Of a stretch of DNA of 64,000 nucleotides, positions 47,177 through 55,438 are shown one piece after another. Under the pieces are notes generated by a model. That model worked only from the letters and a program-made list of their open reading frames with translations, was not told the DNA's origin and did no database searches. The stretch comes from an uncultured Mycoplasmatota bacterium (GTDB lineage Bacteria; Bacillota_I; Bacilli_A; RF39; UBA660), in NCBI GenBank assembly GCA_900546055.1, contig URBG01000001.1, positions 21,169-85,168 on the forward strand. The letters are read 5' to 3'. Both the position numbers and the translations under genes were made by a program. Each line of letters begins with the position of its first letter. Position 1 is the first letter of the stretch.

Positions 47177-48472
47177 CTAAATATATTGTGCAACCATATC
47201 ATCAAGTAAAATATCTATTAAATATATTTCATTATTATTTTTTTGAATAACATCATCTGCATATTCATTTAATACATCTACACAATCTATAATTATTTTC
47301 CCTTTATCAAAATAATTTTTTGTTGTAACATCTATTTCTGCATGCCCCAATTCTTCTGAAACAGCTTTTAAATTAATATTATTTGTTAATAATAATGTTG
47401 TATATACATGTCTTAATCCGTGAAATGTTATTTTTGGTAAATTGTTATTTTCCAATAAACTATCAAAATATTTATAATGAAAACTTGCACCTCTTGCACT
47501 TCCATCTGCAGAAAAACAAATATAATCATTATCAACAAAATTTTTGTTTTTAATCTTTCTTTCTGTTTTTATTTCTTCATATTTCTTCTTTTGTTCTAAA
47601 ATTGCTTCAAAAACTATATCAGGAATATACTGTATTCTATCAATTTTTCGAGATTTTAATTTTATTTCTTGCTTTGTTTTGTATTTTCCGTTTAAATGAT
47701 TTGTCTCTTCATTCATTTTATTTATATCAGTTCCAATTTGTCTTTGTATGTGTATTGTTCTCTTTATAAAATTAATATCAGAAAATTTCAATCCTCTTAT
47801 TTCACTTTTTCTCATTCCCATTAAAACAGCAAATAAAACATATAAATATATTGGAGTGTTTGTGCTTTTATTAATTAATAATTGAACTTGAGATATTGAA
47901 AATGTCTCTTTAATTTTATTTTTTTTATTATGTTCAATTTCATTTAATATATCTTTTGGCACATTAATACCTTCAGCAACATTTAAAGATACTAAATTAT
48001 TGTTTTTTGCATATTTCAACGAATTACTCATTGTGATTAATGCCCATGAAGCAAGCGATAAATGTTTATCAGAAACAAATTTTATAAATCTATTTATATG
48101 TCCTATGTTTAATTGATGTAAATATAAATTATCAAAATATTCTTTTGCATAATTATAAACTATATTTTTGTACGAATTAAATGTATTATACTTAACTTCA
48201 TTTATTTTAATGTTTTGTAACCAATATTCTAAATAGTCAAATACCTTAATGTTTTGATATAAAACATATTCACTAAGATTTAATTGCGTAATTTTCTCTT
48301 CTCTATCTTTTTTTGCTTCTCTTTGCGTAGAAAATCCACCATGTTGTTTCAACAAAGTACTATTATCGTTAAATTTAAATAAAATTCTATATCCATACTT
48401 GTTTTTTAATTTTATAACATCATAAACAGTATATTCAATAATTTTTCGTTCTACGATTTCTTTAGTTAACAT
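47177..48472 (-). CDS. tyrosine-type site-specific integrase (phage integrase family)
   Basis: N-terminal arm/core-binding region and catalytic domain with R…HGLRHVYTTLLL…Y motifs. Confidence 0.85.
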   Translation of the reverse strand: MLTKEIVERKIIEYTVYDVIKLKNKYGYRILFKFNDNSTLLKQHGGFSTQREAKKDREEKITQLNLSEYVLYQNIKVFDYLEYWLQNIKINEVKYNTFNSYKNIVYNYAKEYFDNLYLHQLNIGHINRFIKFVSDKHLSLASWALITMSNSLKYAKNNNLVSLNVAEGINVPKDILNEIEHNKKNKIKETFSISQVQLLINKSTNTPIYLYVLFAVLMGMRKSEIRGLKFSDINFIKRTIHIQRQIGTDINKMNEETNHLNGKYKTKQEIKLKSRKIDRIQYIPDIVFEAILEQKKKYEEIKTERKIKNKNFVDNDYICFSADGSARGASFHYKYFDSLLENNNLPKITFHGLRHVYTTLLLTNNINLKAVSEELGHAEIDVTTKNYFDKGKIIIDCVDVLNEYADDVIQKNNNEIYLIDILLDDMVAQYI

Positions 48473-49089
48473 GATAATAAATTCTCCGAATATCCTTCTT
48501 GTTCAATTTTGAAAGTACTGTTTAAGAATGATAAAATTTTATTTTTCTCATCCATCACTTCACAATAATAATCAAATGTAGTATGAACTGAGGTGTGTCC
48601 TAACATGGCAGAAATAATTTGTATATCTACGCCTTTTTCCAACAAAATTGTAGCACACATATGTCTTAAAGAGTGGACTGTAATGTGTGGTAAACTCAAT
48701 TTTTTGCATATTCGCTTTATCTGATCATTAAGAATTGTTGTACCATGCGGTTTACCATTTACTTGACAACTAACATAATCATTGTCAGTATATATTGCTT
48801 CATAAAATTTCTTATTATAATTATTCAATTGTTCTCTTTTTTCTAATTCCTCTACAACTACTGTTGGAATCTTAAATTTTCTGTTCCCAGCTTCTGTTTT
48901 TGTATTTGTTTCTATTTTTCTAGTAGAAAATGATTTACATGTTTTTGCTTTTAAATTGTGTTTAACAACTATCTGTCTTTCAATAGACAAATAAATAAAA
49001 TCATCAAACGAATGAAAATCCGAAAATTTTAATCCTGCTATTTCACCTTTACGAAGTCCACAAAATATTTCCTCCCTAGGGTACAGCAA
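48466..49089 (-). pseudogene. 5'-truncated second tyrosine integrase (catalytic domain only)
   Basis: Starts on TTG mid-domain (LRKGEIAGLKFSDF, paralogous to MRKSEIRGLKFSDI in the full integrase). HSLRHMCATILL…Y retained. Confidence 0.6.
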
Positions 49090-49206: not shown

Positions 49207-49692
49207 TTATTCTTCGTAAATTATATGTTCCAATTGATTATTATTATCATTTTTTATTTTTTCTTTTAAAATATTAAGTAAAAAATTATAATTATCAATT
49301 TCTGTTATTTTAGCCCATTTAAATTTTGACTTTCCATCATGTTCTTCATCTAAGGAATTATATTCCTTATCATCAGTATATCCTGATTCAGTTTCATCAA
49401 TTTCTGTATTATAATAAAAACCTATTTCATGATACTTTGTACCATTTGGTACATTTGTAATTGCTTCTATTATATATTTTAAGTGTAATTCACATTCAAG
49501 TCCTAATTCTTCTTGTAATTCTCTTTTTATTGCGTCACCACTGTTTTCTAATGTTTCTAAACGCCCTCCAGGTAACATATAAATATCATGTTTTTGTTTT
49601 TGCACCAAAACTTTTGTATGATTTTGATTAAAAATTATTGCACCAACTCTTACTCCAAATCTAGTTGTATCATCTTTCATTGTAATAACCAT
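49207..49692 (-). CDS. NUDIX hydrolase
   Basis: Nudix box GGRLETLENSGDAIKRELQEELGLE. Confidence 0.8.
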   Translation of the reverse strand: MVITMKDDTTRFGVRVGAIIFNQNHTKVLVQKQKHDIYMLPGGRLETLENSGDAIKRELQEELGLECELHLKYIIEAITNVPNGTKYHEIGFYYNTEIDETESGYTDDKEYNSLDEEHDGKSKFKWAKITEIDNYNFLLNILKEKIKNDNNNQLEHIIYEE

Positions 49693-49730: not shown

Positions 49731-50318
49731 TTATTTTCTATAAATAGATTTACATTCTTCTTTTTTATTTAAACCTACAAAATTTAAAATTTCATCCACA
49801 ACACTTTCTAAATCCATATCAGAAACATCAATTTTATATGTATCTAAACTAGAAAAATCAGGGATTTTTTTTATTGCTTCATTAAAAATTTCTTCTATAC
49901 AATCTTTACAATAATTATCATATGATATTTCTTCAGAAGTTTTTTTAATTCTATTAACTAGCCTACTATAAATTACTTTTGGATTACAAGTTAAAGTAAT
50001 GTTATAAAATTCAAATTGATTTCCATTTTCTTCTAAATAATTAATTATTTGATTAATAACATTGTCTTGGTGTAAAATCCAAGAAAATATTATATTATCA
50101 AAATTTGGATTATGTAAATGATTATTTAGAACATAACAAATGCTATCGATAGTTCGTTCCATTGTTTCTTTATCAAAATGCCAATCGGACCCCTGTTCAA
50201 AACACCAATCACCATCTAACATTACACTAGAATTTAATTCATTTACTAATTTTTTTGCTGTGGTAGTTTTACCAACCCCTGTTGTACCACTAATAAAAAT
50301 TAATTTCTTTTTTTTCAT
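49731..50318 (-). CDS. small P-loop kinase-like NTPase (AAA_33/zeta-toxin-like fold)
   Basis: Walker A ISGTTGVGKTTT at the N-terminus, about 195 aa, no second domain. Confidence 0.55.
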   Translation of the reverse strand: MKKKKLIFISGTTGVGKTTTAKKLVNELNSSVMLDGDWCFEQGSDWHFDKETMERTIDSICYVLNNHLHNPNFDNIIFSWILHQDNVINQIINYLEENGNQFEFYNITLTCNPKVIYSRLVNRIKKTSEEISYDNYCKDCIEEIFNEAIKKIPDFSSLDTYKIDVSDMDLESVVDEILNFVGLNKKEECKSIYRK

Positions 50319-50335
50319 ATAAATATAATTCCTTT

Positions 50336-51721
50336 CTACATATTCACAGCACGTTTTTTTACTAATATAGAATTACCTTTAGTATTAACTTTTGAATAAA
50401 ATATTTCTAAAAATTTTTGATATGTGTCTAAAATTTCTGCCTTAAAATTAATTGGTAGAACAAAATCATGGTCTTTTTCTATTTCAGCAAAAATAGATTG
50501 AACATTATCAGCATCAATAAACTGCATGTAATAGTCTATTGCTTCTTTGTTATTTCCTTCATAATATAATTTTAGCAAAGAAGTAATTTTATCTTCTCTA
50601 TAATTCTGATTATATTCCTGCAATAATAATGTATGGTTATTTAATATATTATTTTCTATTTGTTGTCCATCAATATCTTTTTCAATTCTTGGTCTATCAA
50701 AATGTAACATATTACCATTGTCAAAAGCCATTAATCTCACACTTTGGGTTTGTTCGTTTACAATAATCCCCCAGTTATAAGGATTTCTATCAGGTTGTAA
50801 TGTCAGCAAATCATAAATATATAATTTTTTTATTTCTGCTTTAATTTCTTCATTGTAATTATAACCTTTTCTAAAACAATAATCTTCTATTACTGATATA
50901 ATATTTTCAACATTACATTTTCTAACTAATTCTAATTTATCTATATTATTATCTGGACACATTAACTGTGCAGCAGAAATAAATTTTTCGCCTTTATTTA
51001 CAAAGTTATAGGTAATTATACCTCTGTTACCATTATATGTAGCTAAATCATAATAACAATATGGAAGAGAAAATTTTTTCATCATATACATATTAAATAT
51101 TTCAGTATAACTTTCAAAACTACCAGGTGTTTCATTTTTGAACATAATATGCTCATCAAGCCAAAATTTATTTCTTGAGCCGCCAATTTCTGGCCTGATT
51201 TGTTCTAATTTAACATAGTCATCAATTGCTAAAAATCCATTGTTCCTACTCGCGCATCTTATTAAATACTTAAAGATAATAGGAAAATTTTCTTCGTATT
51301 CTTGCGGATCATCAGTCATATGAAAAACATTATCATAATGAACTTTTTGATTGTTTATATAATCTTCTTGTGGTAAAACTAAATGTCTATATTTTCTTCT
51401 TATACCTACTTTTAAATCCAAAACATTTTGATACATATATTTCCCTTTTTCTGGTAAATATATTTTTTTATCATCAGGTAATTCAAGTTGCATAATATAA
51501 ATATAATTATCTTGGTACTTATTAACTAGCCCATTAATTTTATATTCGGCTTTCCAAAGTTCATCTTCTGAGAATGGATATAATTCTCTAATGAAATTTT
51601 CATAATCTTGCCCTAAATCTATTTTCCAAAGATAATTAATTGTAGAAATTTTTTGGATATCATTAAGTGCTTCTTCCGCCTTATTACCTATTGAATTCCA
51701 CAAAACCCCAAATAATTTCAT
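50336..51721 (-). CDS. HipA-like (HipA_C-type) serine/threonine kinase family protein
   Basis: GGSRNKF (HipA GAQxKF-like), DRNPYNWGII (HipA catalytic loop DxHxxN with His replaced by Arg), RLMAFDNGN (HipA RLAPAYD-like Mg/activation motif), all in HipA order. Confidence 0.5.
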   Translation of the reverse strand: MKLFGVLWNSIGNKAEEALNDIQKISTINYLWKIDLGQDYENFIRELYPFSEDELWKAEYKINGLVNKYQDNYIYIMQLELPDDKKIYLPEKGKYMYQNVLDLKVGIRRKYRHLVLPQEDYINNQKVHYDNVFHMTDDPQEYEENFPIIFKYLIRCASRNNGFLAIDDYVKLEQIRPEIGGSRNKFWLDEHIMFKNETPGSFESYTEIFNMYMMKKFSLPYCYYDLATYNGNRGIITYNFVNKGEKFISAAQLMCPDNNIDKLELVRKCNVENIISVIEDYCFRKGYNYNEEIKAEIKKLYIYDLLTLQPDRNPYNWGIIVNEQTQSVRLMAFDNGNMLHFDRPRIEKDIDGQQIENNILNNHTLLLQEYNQNYREDKITSLLKLYYEGNNKEAIDYYMQFIDADNVQSIFAEIEKDHDFVLPINFKAEILDTYQKFLEIFYSKVNTKGNSILVKKRAVNM

Positions 51722-52761
51722 TTTGTTATACCTCCATTCCTACTTTCTACCAAGGTATCAACTTGTGCGGCAACATTTTTAATATCTATTCCTTCTTCAA
51801 GCGAAATAAAATATCTATTCATAAATTCTACTGTTTTTGCTTTTTTGACCATAAGTTTTATATCATCTAAACAATTAAAATCTAGTTGTCCCTTTTCTAA
51901 TGTATTTAAGCATATAAGTAAATTATGTAAAAGAGTTGCATTATAATGGCTTATAGCTTCATCCATCAAATTCGGAAAATGATTTTGTATATCCGTTATT
52001 ACACTATCAGCATATTGCATTAATAACATACTATCTTTTCCAAAGTTAGTATTAATTAACGAATTTGGATTAATAAAATAATGATTATAGTTTGTTCTTA
52101 TATCGTGACAGAATATATTACTATTCATTAGTGCCTGCCAAAGAAAAATAAAATCTTCATTTATATTGGTAGCAGGAAATTTAATATTTTTTATCAATTC
52201 TCTTTTGTATAATTTACCCCAAACAGCATTTGAAAGTTCAAAAGATAAATATTTTTTTAGCATTTGTTCTTTATCTAATACAGTGATTTCATCACCTATT
52301 GAATATGGAACTATACTTTCTTTTTCAAAAACAACTTTTATTCCGCCTTCAACAATATCTGCATCATATTTAACAGTAGAATAATACAAGTTTTCAAGTA
52401 ATTTTGTATCTAAAACATCATCACTATCAACAAACGTTATATATTTGCCAGTTGATTTAGATAATCCAACGTTTCTAGCCATCCCTACTCCAGAATTATT
52501 CTGATTAATTAATATAATTCTATTATCTTCTTGTTTGTACTGACTACAAATAACAGCACTATTATCTGTTGAGCCATCATTAATCAATATTATTTCCAAA
52601 TTTTTATAGGTCTGATTAACAATTGAATTTAAAGTTGCTCTTAAATATTTTTCCGCGTTGTATATTGGTACAATAACTGATATACATTCTAGATTTGTAT
52701 TATCATCATTAATACAATTTTCCATAATTACCCCCTCGATTTTCCTTATATTATATATCAT
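51718..52761 (-). CDS. family 2 glycosyltransferase
   Basis: VIVPIYNAEKYL…INDGSTDNS…FVDSDD GT2 motifs; its stop overlaps the start of the HipA-like gene by 4 bp. Confidence 0.85.
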   Translation of the reverse strand: MIYNIRKIEGVIMENCINDDNTNLECISVIVPIYNAEKYLRATLNSIVNQTYKNLEIILINDGSTDNSAVICSQYKQEDNRIILINQNNSGVGMARNVGLSKSTGKYITFVDSDDVLDTKLLENLYYSTVKYDADIVEGGIKVVFEKESIVPYSIGDEITVLDKEQMLKKYLSFELSNAVWGKLYKRELIKNIKFPATNINEDFIFLWQALMNSNIFCHDIRTNYNHYFINPNSLINTNFGKDSMLLMQYADSVITDIQNHFPNLMDEAISHYNATLLHNLLICLNTLEKGQLDFNCLDDIKLMVKKAKTVEFMNRYFISLEEGIDIKNVAAQVDTLVESRNGGITK

Positions 52762-52916
52762 AATAATAGAAAGTCAAGAAACACCAAAAATATCTTCTCT
52801 TGACTTTTATTTAACTATATATAATTCATGTAATGCTCTAGTCATTGAAACATACAACAATTTCATATCTTCTGTTTTTTCTTTATCAAATTTACCAATA
52901 CCAGTATCAAGTAAAA

Positions 52917-54585
52917 TTACAAATCAAATTCTAAAACTTTTGATAAATAACTACTAGTACAACATATAGAATTAATTGAATTTTGATTATTTTCGTTAGT
53001 TTTATCAAAATCAATAATTTTAGACAAATTATTGCGAACTTCTTCAACAATAGGCTGATTTTTACATATAACCGCAATACTTTTGTAGTTTTTATTTAAA
53101 GAATTATTTATTATTTCTAAAATGGTATTATATAAATTATTTTCTTTTGAAGAGACATATTGTACTTCTTTACCATGCCTTATAACAGGAATAGCTATGG
53201 AATATCCTAATAACTCATTTATTTTATTAGCTTCATTCATTATTTCTATGGTTGTTCTATAACTTTTATTTAAATATAATATTTCGCATTCCCCATTAAA
53301 TACAGAATCTATAATTTCTTCCCAAGTTTGTATACTTTTATAAGAATACAATGATTGGGCTAAATCTCCATAAATACTAAACGTGGAATTATACATTATA
53401 TTTTTCAGCACATAAAAGGTAAATGTATTATAATCTTGTGCTTCATCTATTACAACATGTCGATATTTGGAAAATTCTTCAGCCCCGTATAATCTATATT
53501 TAATATACATAAGCGGGGTTAAATCTTCTTTACTAATTTTTTTATTTCTTATTTCTTTTTGCTTTTCATCGTAATCAAAGTTATTCATTTTCAAGTACTC
53601 ATTTTTTTTTAAGAATTTCTAAATAAATTTGAATTGGGGTTTTAATTAATTTTTTAAAATATAATTTTAAAATATTGCTACCAGAAACATTTAATTCTTT
53701 TTTTAGTTGTTCTCTATCCCTTATTATTTTGTTTTGAATTGTTTTTGTATAGTTTTTTGATAATGATTGAGATAAAATTTTTTCTAAAATTACATCTGCT
53801 TTTTCTTCAATTTTTTTTGATAAAATTGCTATTGTCTTATCAATTTTTGATTCTAACGTTTTATGGAATTTATCATTTATTGATAAATATGTATCTTTAA
53901 TTACATCAACATCTAATATTTTAAAATCTTTAAAATATAAATGTTCATTTGGAATTAAATTATCATAGTATTTTTTTAAATATATGTCTATTTCTTTTTT
54001 GAAATCCATAGAAGTAATATAATAGGCGAATGCATTTTTTTCCTCATTCTTATTGTTATTTAAAATATCTGCAAAATTTTCTACATCTAATTTTTCTTTC
54101 AAAAAGGTTTGAGCAAAATCTATTAAATCATATTGAGAAACTCCGTTAACATCTAAATCAGGTAAAACACTTGATATATATTCGCCAAAAAATTTATTTG
54201 GTCCAATTACCATATATTGATTTGAATCATAAATATCTCTGTTATTATATACTAAATACGCTATTCTATGTAAAGCAACAGTGGTTTTTCCACTACCAGC
54301 AACGCCTTGTATAATTGAATTATATTTTAAATCTTGTCTTATTATTTTATTTTGTTCACTTTGAATAGTAGAGACAATATTTTTTAACCTATTATCAGCA
54401 TTAACACCTAAAAATGGTTTTAACAATTCATCTTTGCTTACTGTATCAACATCAATAAAATTTAATAATTGCCCATTTTCAATTTGTGAATAATAGGGTT
54501 TAGTAATTCCTAATTCTTCAGCAATATCTTTACCAAGAATTTTTTTCTTTTTTTTCTCTGCTTTTAATGTTTCTAATTTCCCCAT
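52917..54585 (-). pseudogene. HTH(XRE)-UvrD/Rep-like SF1 helicase split by a frameshift at an A9 homopolymer
   Basis: The 53599..54585 ORF (XRE HTH plus Walker A GVAGSGKTT) ends with AAAAAAAAA-TGA. The 52917..53594 ORF (motif II VVIDEAQDY, SYRTT) begins on TTG 4 nt later. An 8-A tract would fuse them in-frame. Confidence 0.6.
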
Positions 54586-54775: not shown

Positions 54776-55438
54776 TTACAATAATTTATTATCATTGAAT
54801 GTTATGTAGTTGTTTGGATTGGCTCCTTTATATACATATCTTCCTTCTTCATATGCATCTGCATATAGTCCATCTCCTGTTATTACTGCTGTTCCTATTA
54901 GTTTATCTGAGGCACTCTCTCCACTTGGAGTTGTTCCAGTTGCCTGACTATAGTCTAAGTCTACTATTAGGGTTGATGCCGTATTTGTTGGTTGTTCACT
55001 TACACTACTTATATATTCTACTTTTACGATTAATACTTTAGTGTTTCCAGCTGTTATTACATCACCTTTGGTCATTCCTGATGAAGTAAACTTGATTGCT
55101 GGATTATTTGTATCACTTAAAGCTATATCATCTAACTTAGCATCTAAACTTCCAGCATTGTTTACGGTAATATCATACTCTATACTATCACCTGGTGTTT
55201 GAAGTGATGTTTTAAAGGTTGCGCTTAATTCTTCAAAACTTGGATCACCATTATTACTGGCTGTGCCTACAATGTTTTTACTTTCTACCTTTGTTATCTT
55301 TACATTCCAGCTACTTGTTATATTACTTGTTCCTTGAATATTTAATACTGTTTGAAACGCGGCATAACCAACTGCCATTAACAATACTACTGCACACAAA
55401 CTTCCGATGATTATATTTCTCTTTTTACTTTTGTTCAT
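54776..55438 (-). CDS. secreted protein, 5' (N-terminal) half of the gene interrupted by the element; SipW-cognate-like signal peptide
   Basis: MNKSKKRNIIIGSLCAVVLLMAVGYAAFQT… signal; the ORF terminates 18 nt into the element sequence. Confidence 0.45.
   Translation of the reverse strand: MNKSKKRNIIIGSLCAVVLLMAVGYAAFQTVLNIQGTSNITSSWNVKITKVESKNIVGTASNNGDPSFEELSATFKTSLQTPGDSIEYDITVNNAGSLDAKLDDIALSDTNNPAIKFTSSGMTKGDVITAGNTKVLIVKVEYISSVSEQPTNTASTLIVDLDYSQATGTTPSGESASDKLIGTAVITGDGLYADAYEEGRYVYKGANPNNYITFNDNKLL

Follow-up and report, generated by a model that had tools for sequence, protein, structure and literature searches.

A putative two-domain phosphotransferase with predicted NDK-like and HipA/CtkA-type kinase domains in a mobile enzyme cassette of an uncultured Mycoplasmatota bacterium

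The stretch of DNA analysed here (64,000 nucleotides from an uncultured Mycoplasmatota bacterium, G+C content about 28%, hereafter the window) contains an open reading frame (ORF) at 50336-51721 on its minus strand that starts with ATG and encodes 461 amino acids, exactly where an earlier note made from the sequence had placed it. We find that the product of this gene is a real and conserved protein and, according to structure prediction, a putative phosphotransferase in which a divergent nucleoside-diphosphate kinase (NDK)-like domain is fused to a kinase domain of the HipA/CtkA type. Judged from the sequence, conserved sets of putative catalytic residues are present in both domains. The operon to which the gene belongs encodes a family 2 glycosyltransferase (GT2), the fusion protein, an AAA_18 kinase and a NUDIX hydrolase, and it moves as a block together with a HelD-like gene. 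This architecture and this context are unexpected for a HipA-type kinase; the substrate and the role proposed below are what we infer from them.

Conservation of the fusion protein

A search of 5.8 billion proteins returned 20 clusters of homologues, none of which (0/20) carries a Pfam domain; one near-identical cluster member, annotated as 'hypothetical protein', comes from a metagenome-assembled genome (MAG) of the Oscillospiraceae. A profile search of 1.84 billion representatives yielded 978 relatives, while a scan of viral contigs yielded none. The protein was not recognised by Pfam or NCBIfam (E ≤ 1) and a sequence search of the PDB gave no match, nor did the profile of an 18-sequence family match any entry of Pfam, NCBIfam or the PDB directly.

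The close-family alignment consists of these 18 members, which share 39-86% identity. The three motifs on which the earlier note was built are all present in the fusion protein and in the order given there: GGSRNK at residues 180-185, QPDRNPYN at 309-316 and FDNGN at 333-337. Q309, D311, R312, N313, P314, N316, F333, D334 and N337 are invariant in the 18 sequences, as is an N-terminal block, N131-V-F-H-M-x-D-D138. The motifs are thus conserved features and not chance strings. The full-length AlphaFold2 model obtained from the family alignment reached a predicted local distance difference test (pLDDT) score of 85 and a predicted template modelling (pTM) score of 0.80.

The C-terminal kinase domain

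The C-terminal domain (amino acids ~165-450; 50372-51229, minus strand) was assigned to the HipA/CtkA/HipT kinase fold by Foldseek, PADLOC and hhalign. The top Foldseek match in the PDB was CtkA (3akk, E 1.4e-7, probability 1.00); Legionella HipT (8ezs), other bacterial HipT-like kinases and the HipA proteins of Shewanella and E. coli (4pu5/2wiu/3dnt) also matched with a probability of 1.00. The template modelling (TM) scores against CtkA, HipT and HipA structures, normalised to the target, were 0.5-0.63, and the kinase domains of mTOR, CotH and APH were found as remoter matches. In PADLOC, the PDC-M03A model PDLC04344 matched amino acids 177-436 of the protein with an E value of 1.4e-19.

The relationship is much less apparent in direct sequence comparisons. 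Pfam HipA_C matched neither the fusion protein nor any of its 18 close homologues, even at E ≤ 10, and the link to this family runs via stand-alone relatives of the C-terminal domain of about 300 amino acids, which do reach HipA_C (PF07804). An hhalign comparison of the shallow family alignment with the single E. coli HipA and Ndk sequences found no alignment, and a local jackhmmer search from the family reached neither of the two proteins. The alignment with HipA appeared only after the C-domain profile had been enriched locally with distant relatives to 151 sequences. This superfamily profile aligned with E. coli HipA at an hhalign probability of 73-78% and an E value of about 2e-5 (1.7e-5 over 273 columns at 78%).

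Structure and profile comparisons with HipA and CtkA, which the earlier note had called for, thus agreed on the kinase fold, no unrelated fold was found, and its proposal of a divergent HipA-like family is borne out, although by way of Foldseek, PADLOC and hhalign and not of Pfam. That the motifs are coincidental and the fold an unrelated one, as the lack of any Pfam, NCBIfam or PDB sequence match for the protein itself might suggest, is refuted by the Foldseek and PADLOC matches, the alignment of the profile with HipA and the HipA_C-annotated intermediates, and is hardly credible.

The equivalent of the ATP phosphate-binding Gly-rich loop, G180-G-S-R-N-K185 (51167-51184, minus strand), pairs with A152-G-A-Q-E-K157 of HipA in the extended hhalign alignment, whose columns beyond the catalytic core are aligned with low confidence. 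The pairing supports the earlier reading of GGSRNKF as this loop. K185 of this string is not invariant in the close family, but R183 and W187 are; of the 151 superfamily sequences, 73% keep G181 and 74% keep W187. K195 (51137-51139, minus strand), the equivalent of the ATP-binding lysine, is aligned with HipA K181 and conserved in 84% of the superfamily, and E207, which pairs with HipA E203, in 82%. In the catalytic loop Q309-P-D311-R-N313-P-Y-N316 (50774-50797, minus strand), D311 corresponds to HipA D309 and N316 to N314, each conserved in 87% of the sequences, and R312 is found in 81%. The aspartate and the asparagine have therefore been kept, as had been noted, but the claim that the histidine is replaced by arginine was wrong: in the D-x-H-x-x-N register the position of His311 is taken by Asn313, while Arg312 occupies the D+1 position, where HipA has Gly310. 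This arginine is found family-wide. D334 of the motif F333-D334-N-G-N337 (50711-50725, minus strand), which had been put forward as the Mg-binding aspartate, is aligned with HipA D332 and conserved in 85% of the superfamily. The C-domain profile thereby places the whole Asp/Asn/Asp triad on HipA D309/N314/D332, and K195, E207, D311, R312, N316 and D334 are the most conserved positions among the 151 sequences.

The catalytic loop of the superfamily occurs in two main forms. It reads QGDRHxxNW in 50 of the 151 sequences, none of which comes from a protein with the N-terminal domain, and Q[PSA]DRNPxN in 66, of which 37 come from proteins with this domain and 29 from proteins without it. D-R-H-x-x-N is the catalytic loop of PI3K, PI4K and mTOR, and D-x-K-P-x-N that of the Hanks-type kinases. 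Catalysis looks possible with a DRNPxN loop, beside which all the other catalytic positions (K195, E207, D311, N316 and D334) are retained. Based on the predicted structure, the C-terminal domain would work like, and descend from, the HipA-family kinases, as a divergent member.

The N-terminal NDK-like domain

The N-terminal domain (amino acids 1-160; 51242-51721, minus strand) is predicted to adopt a divergent NDK-like fold. An AlphaFold2 model of this domain alone reached a pLDDT of 90 and a pTM of 0.85, and when it was compared with the PDB by Foldseek, the top 50 of 50 matches were NDKs or proteins with an NDK domain (probability 0.9-1.0, TM score 0.5-0.6, E 1e-3 to 3e-2). They include the NDKs of mimivirus, Borrelia, Mycobacterium and human as well as axonemal radial-spoke proteins with NDK domains; the full-length model also matched NDKs, with a probability of 1.00. 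The observation in the earlier note that the first ~180 amino acids do not resemble HipA N-domains was correct, and the region is instead NDK-like in its predicted fold. An analogue of HipS or of the HipA N-subdomain was ruled out, since the structural matches were to NDKs only. Elsewhere the domain occurs as a stand-alone protein of about 150-190 amino acids.

As in NDKs, the predicted secondary structure elements follow the order beta-alpha-beta-beta-alpha-beta with a helix hairpin. A putative counterpart of the NDK motif N-x-x-H-G-S-D is the strand N-x-x-H-x-[ST]-D with its near-universal histidine, and a conserved tyrosine in the helix hairpin and basic residues ahead of the histidine are further resemblances. 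The strand in question, N131-V-F-H134-M-T-D-D138 (51308-51331, minus strand), is a putative NDK-type active-site strand in which H134 would be the candidate phospho-histidine; in the AlphaFold2 model H134 lies on a short predicted beta-strand (residues 133-135). Conservation counted over 83 N-domain sequences was 96% for H134, 99% for Y48 and 98% for both R108 and K104, and the best-kept residues are W8, N9, F43, Y48, K57, K61, K92, K104, R108, D130, N131, F133, H134, D137 and E141. The domain differs from NDKs by W8-N9-S10 in the place of K-P-D, by an additional beta-hairpin (residues 86-97) and by the greater length of the loop leading to the histidine, and it lacks significant sequence similarity to them. 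Pfam NDK (PF00334) matched neither the fusion protein nor its close homologues. In an hhalign comparison with an NDK profile made of E. coli Ndk and four further sequences (each matching Pfam NDK at E ~1e-57), 116 columns were aligned co-linearly but not significantly (E 0.063, probability 0.9%), with Y48/R108/N131/H134/T136/D137 facing Tyr52/Arg105/Asn115/His118/Ser120/Asp121 of NDK. The NDK-like fold is thus supported by the structure models, and H134 may be equivalent to the NDK phospho-histidine, an equivalence we only infer because the profile comparison is not significant.

The conserved cassette and its wider family

The four genes of the operon all lie on the minus strand. The first, encoding the GT2 (51718-52761; Pfam Glycos_transf_2, E 4.5e-37; PDB match GalT1, 5hea, E 3.9e-40), overlaps with its stop the start of the fusion gene by 4 nucleotides. 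Its translation probably begins not at 52761 but at the ATG at 52725 (MENCINDD), which follows GAGGGGG; the GT2 homologue of locus L010 begins at the later ATG. The fusion gene is followed by a gene for a P-loop small-molecule kinase of the AAA_18 family, resembling nucleoside monophosphate (NMP) kinases (49731-50318; Pfam AAA_18, E 1.8e-14), with weak matches to PRK03839 ('putative kinase') and Gar/GrdA in NCBIfam and a match to a putative adenylate kinase in the PDB (4cvn, E 1e-6). The last gene encodes a NUDIX hydrolase (49207-49692; Pfam NUDIX, E 1.3e-11); over its entire length it matches 2pqv (E 2e-12) and the nucleoside-triphosphate diphosphatase NUDT15 (E 6e-6) in the PDB.

Upstream of the operon, at 52810-54585 on the minus strand, tblastn and Pfam searches of fragments revealed the remnant of a gene for a HelD-like RNA polymerase recycling ATPase. 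It carries two frameshifts, and its native N-terminal ~130 amino acids are replaced by an HTH_3 segment; with the intact HelD of locus L011 as query, tblastn found it in three frame segments. Intact orthologues match the NCBIfam model HelD_BACSU nearly over the full length with E values of 1e-109 to 1e-120. The same break is present in an independent MAG of 99% identity (L010:950-2328), and in locus L040 HelD is split into two ORFs. These breaks mean either that HelD undergoes repeated decay or that an established cassette can do without it.

The order GT2, fusion protein, AAA_18 kinase and NUDIX hydrolase with an adjoining HelD gene recurs in homologues of 40-74% identity; HelD lies upstream in some and downstream in others, and its strand varies. 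Only the five cassette genes are common to the window and L011, a locus of 74% identity, and the flanks of the two are unrelated. In locus L006 the cassette lies among genes for type IV secretion, anti-restriction, integrase and resolvase functions, a region resembling an integrative and conjugative element (ICE). Two tandem tyrosine-recombinase genes (47177-49089, minus strand; Pfam Phage_integrase) are located directly downstream of the NUDIX gene in the window; the one at 47177-48472 is full length, and the one at 48466-49089 lacks the N-terminal SAM-like domain. The presence of integrases next to the cassette, together with the unrelated flanks of L011, suggests an arrival by site-specific integration. 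No antitoxin gene (HipB, HipS or HipN) and no HIRAN-type neighbour was found in the window or at any of the homologous loci examined.

Several relatives combine the cassette enzymes in single polypeptides. P0037, P0040 and P0041 consist of AAA_18, GT2, NDK-like and HipA-like domains, P0082 and P0106 of P-loop (AAA), GT2 and NDK-like domains, and P0071 of a radical SAM and an NDK-like domain. These fusions tie the cassette enzymes together functionally. The radical SAM half of P0071 matches MoaA (GTP 3',8-cyclase; E 1e-36), the NCBIfam viperin model (7e-19) and the PADLOC pVip model (1e-20); MoaA and viperin both act on nucleoside triphosphates (NTPs). Further radical SAM enzymes fused to or adjoining the NDK-like domain were seen at L013:6902-7978, L021:8509-9513 and L018:11311-12378. 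Along with that of P0071 they are nearest to the models for MoaA, W-cofactor maturases and viperin, in all cases below the cut-offs, and often have a SPASM/twitch region.

A wider sample of loci with the N-terminal domain, drawn from reference genome and metagenome scans and from loci fetched earlier, comprised 46 loci with 34 distinct labelled architectures. They come in two flavours. The first carries genes for NeuA, a polysaccharide deacetylase, NeuB, NeuC, a DHDPS-family protein, SIS/HAD proteins and a pyruvyl transferase, together with a radical SAM/SPASM enzyme and an unrecognised protein of about 480 amino acids. In the second, GT2 and AAA_18 are accompanied either by a radical SAM enzyme or by the HipA-like domain. 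The ~480-amino-acid protein is soluble and conserved in NeuABC-type loci (L021:9500-10933, L018:1852-3306, L033, L035, L037, L038, L040 and L045); it matched nothing in Pfam, NCBIfam or PADLOC, its sole PDB match being a weak one to the CheC-like 3h2d (E 0.004), and may be the transferase of these loci.

Thirteen architectures come with 6 kb or more of sequence on each side; a HelD gene was found in 10 of them and a NUDIX gene in 11. The orders and orientations of the two genes vary, and in several architectures both stand between cluster genes and not at the edge. HipA-like and radical SAM domains exclude each other: none of the 34 architectures has both, 10 have only the HipA-like domain, 16 only a radical SAM enzyme and 8 neither (Fisher p 4e-4, not corrected for phylogeny). 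Polytopic membrane proteins are absent from the labelled cluster proteins, with isolated single-segment hits in some ORF calls only, and no flippase or polymerase was found in the cassette blocks. A classical surface-polysaccharide locus was ruled out, as the blocks are without flippase, polymerase or other membrane protein.

The closest stand-alone HipA_C kinases with a DRN loop, of about 310 amino acids (L026-L032), lie in housekeeping neighbourhoods without an adjacent antitoxin gene, either between GreA and ClpC in the order Peptidase_U32/GreA/kinase/ClpC or behind CofD and WhiA with overlapping stop and start. They look like an orphan lineage of HipA_C kinases outside toxin-antitoxin modules, often near transcription factors.

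Comparison with known systems

The C-terminal domain has the same predicted fold as the Hip kinases without N-subdomain-1, namely HipT, CtkA, the short clade XI kinases HipG/I/J/L/M described by Gerdes et al. 2021 (PMC8262856), and the proteins of the PADLOC PDC-M03A models. It resembles the short kinases in its length of about 290 amino acids and in the position of the Gly-rich loop near the domain start, and the ATP-binding lysine, the catalytic aspartate, the D+5 asparagine and the Mg-binding aspartate of Hip kinases are retained co-linearly. It differs from them in its DRNPxN loop, with asparagine in place of HipA His311, in scoring below the Pfam HipA_C threshold, in its fusion to an NDK-like domain and in its setting in an operon of enzymes. 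While an adjacent antitoxin gene was an inclusion criterion for Hip kinases (PMC8262856), the fusion gene has neither an antitoxin nor a HIRAN partner next to it, and in sister cassettes a radical SAM enzyme stands in the place of its kinase domain. The candidate defence system PDC-M03 consists of a HipA-like A protein and a HIRAN-domain B protein (PMC13245101). Membership in this system was rejected because the HIRAN partner is absent: the A model is matched, but Pfam and PADLOC scans found no adjacent HIRAN gene.

The prokaryotic viperin (pVip) loci are similar in that they pair a radical SAM enzyme acting on NTPs, by fusion or as a neighbour, with a kinase domain from which its NTP substrate could come; P0071 shows the same pairing, and PADLOC includes a 'viperin-kinase fusion' model. 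Unlike them, the cassette of the window has no radical SAM enzyme but the HipA-like domain in its place, the radical SAM enzymes of sister loci fall below the viperin and MoaA family cut-offs, and pVip systems have no described GT2, NUDIX or HelD partners. As to the HelD/HelR motors, intact orthologues of the neighbouring gene match HelD_BACSU at 364-403 bits, just under the equivalog cut-off of 419. Multiple HelD paralogues and their horizontal transfer in gut bacteria have been documented (PMC8655204). We found no report of a HelD linkage to an NDK-like/NUDIX/glycosyltransferase cassette, in literature searches for 'HelD' that were confounded by the word 'held', and no description of a HipA-like and NDK fusion or of anti-phage systems with these components.

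Possible role of the cassette

To our knowledge, the only HipA-family kinases described so far are protein kinases that serve as toxins in toxin-antitoxin modules or candidate defence modules. The altered catalytic loop, the lack of an antitoxin, the fused NDK-like domain and the fixed metabolic partners suggest that the HipA fold has here been recruited for a different job, and the fusion protein is most likely not a toxin-antitoxin kinase. The antitoxin-free cassette and the NDK-like domain shift the likely biology from the variant of a HipA-like toxin to a phosphotransfer enzyme of the metabolic or conflict type. The non-canonical substrate suggested in the earlier note is plausible and agrees with this context.

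We tentatively favour, at somewhat less than even confidence, a cytoplasmic small-molecule pathway acting on a nucleotide or sugar-nucleotide, with the three kinase-type domains working in series. The HipA-fold domain would O-phosphorylate a hydroxyl substrate, a nucleoside or a sugar, and the AAA_18 kinase and the NDK-like domain would raise the product, or the released NMP or nucleoside diphosphate (NDP), to the triphosphate level. The GT2 would add or use a sugar, the NUDT15-like NUDIX hydrolase would hydrolyse the triphosphate product or limit its level, and the linked HelD would handle the consequences for RNA polymerase. The HipA-like domain itself would be a facultative part of the cassette, standing where sister cassettes have the MoaA/viperin-like radical SAM enzyme. 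In a more specific and rather doubtful version, the NDK-like protein, NUDIX and HelD would form the core of a mobile cytoplasmic system that makes a modified nucleotide or nucleotide-sugar acting on transcription, for example an antiviral or antibacterial RNA polymerase substrate analogue. HelD would then rescue the host polymerase, the NUDIX hydrolase would limit self-damage, and, in the variant of the window, the HipA-fold domain, recruited instead of a MoaA/viperin-like radical SAM enzyme, would phosphorylate a nucleoside or a sugar.

Several points weigh against a small-molecule pathway of this kind. Every characterised HipA-fold kinase is known to phosphorylate proteins (see also PMC8262856). 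In the window HelD is a pseudogene and therefore dispensable, the NDK assignment stems from a predicted structure with TM scores of 0.5-0.6 and a non-significant profile match (E 0.063), and the co-occurrence counts ignore phylogeny, with low-GC MAGs that are related and mostly host-associated contributing nearly all loci. Genes for NeuA/NeuB/NeuC are present at many sister loci, the GT2 is nearest to a glycan-elongating enzyme, and the glycosylation of a protein or glycan fits the sugar genes and the GT2 at least as well as the modification of a nucleotide. Such cytoplasmic glycosylation, in which the GT2 or the ~480-amino-acid protein glycosylates a protein or soluble acceptor from UDP- or CMP-sugars, is a possibility to which we give limited credence. 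The AAA_18 kinase and the NDK-like domain would then recycle NMP and NDP to NTP, the NUDIX hydrolase would trim NDP-sugar pools, and the HipA-like domain would phosphorylate a sugar, a glycan or the acceptor protein, the linkage to HelD being incidental. The sialic-acid-type genes around the stand-alone NDK-like genes (NeuA/NeuB/NeuC, polysaccharide deacetylase, a NanA-like DHDPS protein, SIS/HAD, pyruvyl transferase) and the similarity of the GT2 to GalT1 argue for it, and the lack of polytopic membrane proteins among the labelled cluster proteins fits the glycosylation of a cytoplasmic protein. NUDIX genes inside glycan clusters also have a precedent in Gmm/WcaH of E. coli, which we counted in its favour, but the NUDIX hydrolase of the window resembles NTP diphosphatases rather than NDP-sugar hydrolases. 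Moreover, the core cassette has no gene for a nucleotidyltransferase or for sugar activation, fusions of glycosyltransferases with nucleotide-recycling kinases are not an established pattern, and HelD and NUDIX are found inside the clusters, variously ordered and oriented, and accompany the block into mobile elements. Glycosylation would thus explain the sugar genes well but not the linkage to HelD.

The closest structures (HipA, CtkA and HipT) and the best library matches, to the PDC-M03A models of a candidate defence system, would also accord with a HipA-type Ser/Thr protein kinase effector, a toxin or abortive infection protein hitting an essential translation or transcription factor, with the NDK-like domain as an in-cis regulator or nucleotide sensor in place of the HipA N-subdomain or HipS and with neighbours that modulate activation. 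Further points in favour of an effector are the location of the cassette next to integrases and within an ICE-like region, the Ser/Thr residue that the close family retains at position 182 beside the Gly-rich loop, and the proximity of some stand-alone relatives to GreA or WhiA. We nevertheless consider an effector unlikely, given that HipB, HipS, HipN and HIRAN-type neighbours are lacking here and in homologous loci, that the relatives are absent from the viral contigs scanned, and that the N-terminal domain, structurally NDK-like and not HipS-like in 50 of the top 50 matches, has conserved catalytic-looking residues of its own and occurs independently in sugar clusters. The interchange of the kinase domain with a radical SAM enzyme would also be hard to explain for a protein-kinase toxin. 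Less probable still is a mobile resistance island directed against a nucleoside-type antibiotic that targets RNA polymerase, by analogy with the rifamycin factors Rph, Rgt and HelR, in which the kinases, the glycosyltransferase and the NUDIX hydrolase would inactivate the drug while HelD shields RNA polymerase or recycles it. Such an island would be in keeping with the rifamycin resistance that members of the HelD family confer, with their horizontal transfer among gut bacteria and with the existence of unexplained HelD paralogues (PMC8655204), and also with the ICE-like element, the integrases and the UvrA-like paralogue that adjoins the cassette in L001 and L002. The AAA_18 protein weakly matches the Gar/GrdA aminoglycoside-resistance model, and a fused relative matches the chloramphenicol-phosphotransferase-like CPT, but these matches are far below the cut-offs. 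The HelD gene of the window is decayed while the enzymes are intact, and a resistance island would leave unexplained the need for an NDK-like domain, the sialic-acid-type biosynthesis genes and the radical SAM enzymes of the sister loci.

The NDK-like domain represents a family that is not recognised by Pfam or NCBIfam, occurs mainly in low-GC, mostly host-associated MAGs and serves as the marker of a gene system that recurs. That it is so regularly linked to a HelD paralogue is relevant to the question, raised in the HelD literature, why bacteria keep several copies of HelD (PMC8655204). If the small-molecule pathway favoured here is correct and the HipA-fold domain acts on a small molecule, it would be the first HipA-family kinase with a non-protein substrate, and a modified nucleotide acting on transcription would amount to a new kind of conflict or immunity chemistry. 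A mere glycosylation helper would be a modest extension of known enzyme families.

Further observations

Just upstream of the GT2 start, at 52750-52777 on the minus strand, lies a promoter-like site, TTGACT-16-TATAAT, that matches the consensus at 11 of 12 positions, and a hairpin is located at ~52779-52812 between the HelD remnant and the GT2 gene. On account of the two elements, the four-gene operon may be transcribed apart from HelD. The scans for promoters and terminators were uninformative, because the DNA is AT-rich and the number of promoter-like sites in the region equals the shuffle expectation.

A UvrA-like paralogue of 939 amino acids is encoded directly downstream of the cassette HelD in two homologous loci of one lineage (L001:12721-15540 and L002:5231-8050); UvrA paralogues are known as drug-resistance proteins. 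In the metagenomic locus L049 the HipA-like part is distributed over two ORFs, the first with the NDK-like and a HipA-like portion and the second with a HipA-like portion; the split may stem from a frameshift or from faulty assembly. A gene at 54776-55438 on the minus strand, located upstream of the HelD remnant of the window and also present in L010, encodes a protein of 220 amino acids with a single N-terminal hydrophobic segment (MNKSKKRNIIIGSLCAVVLLMAVGYAAF...).

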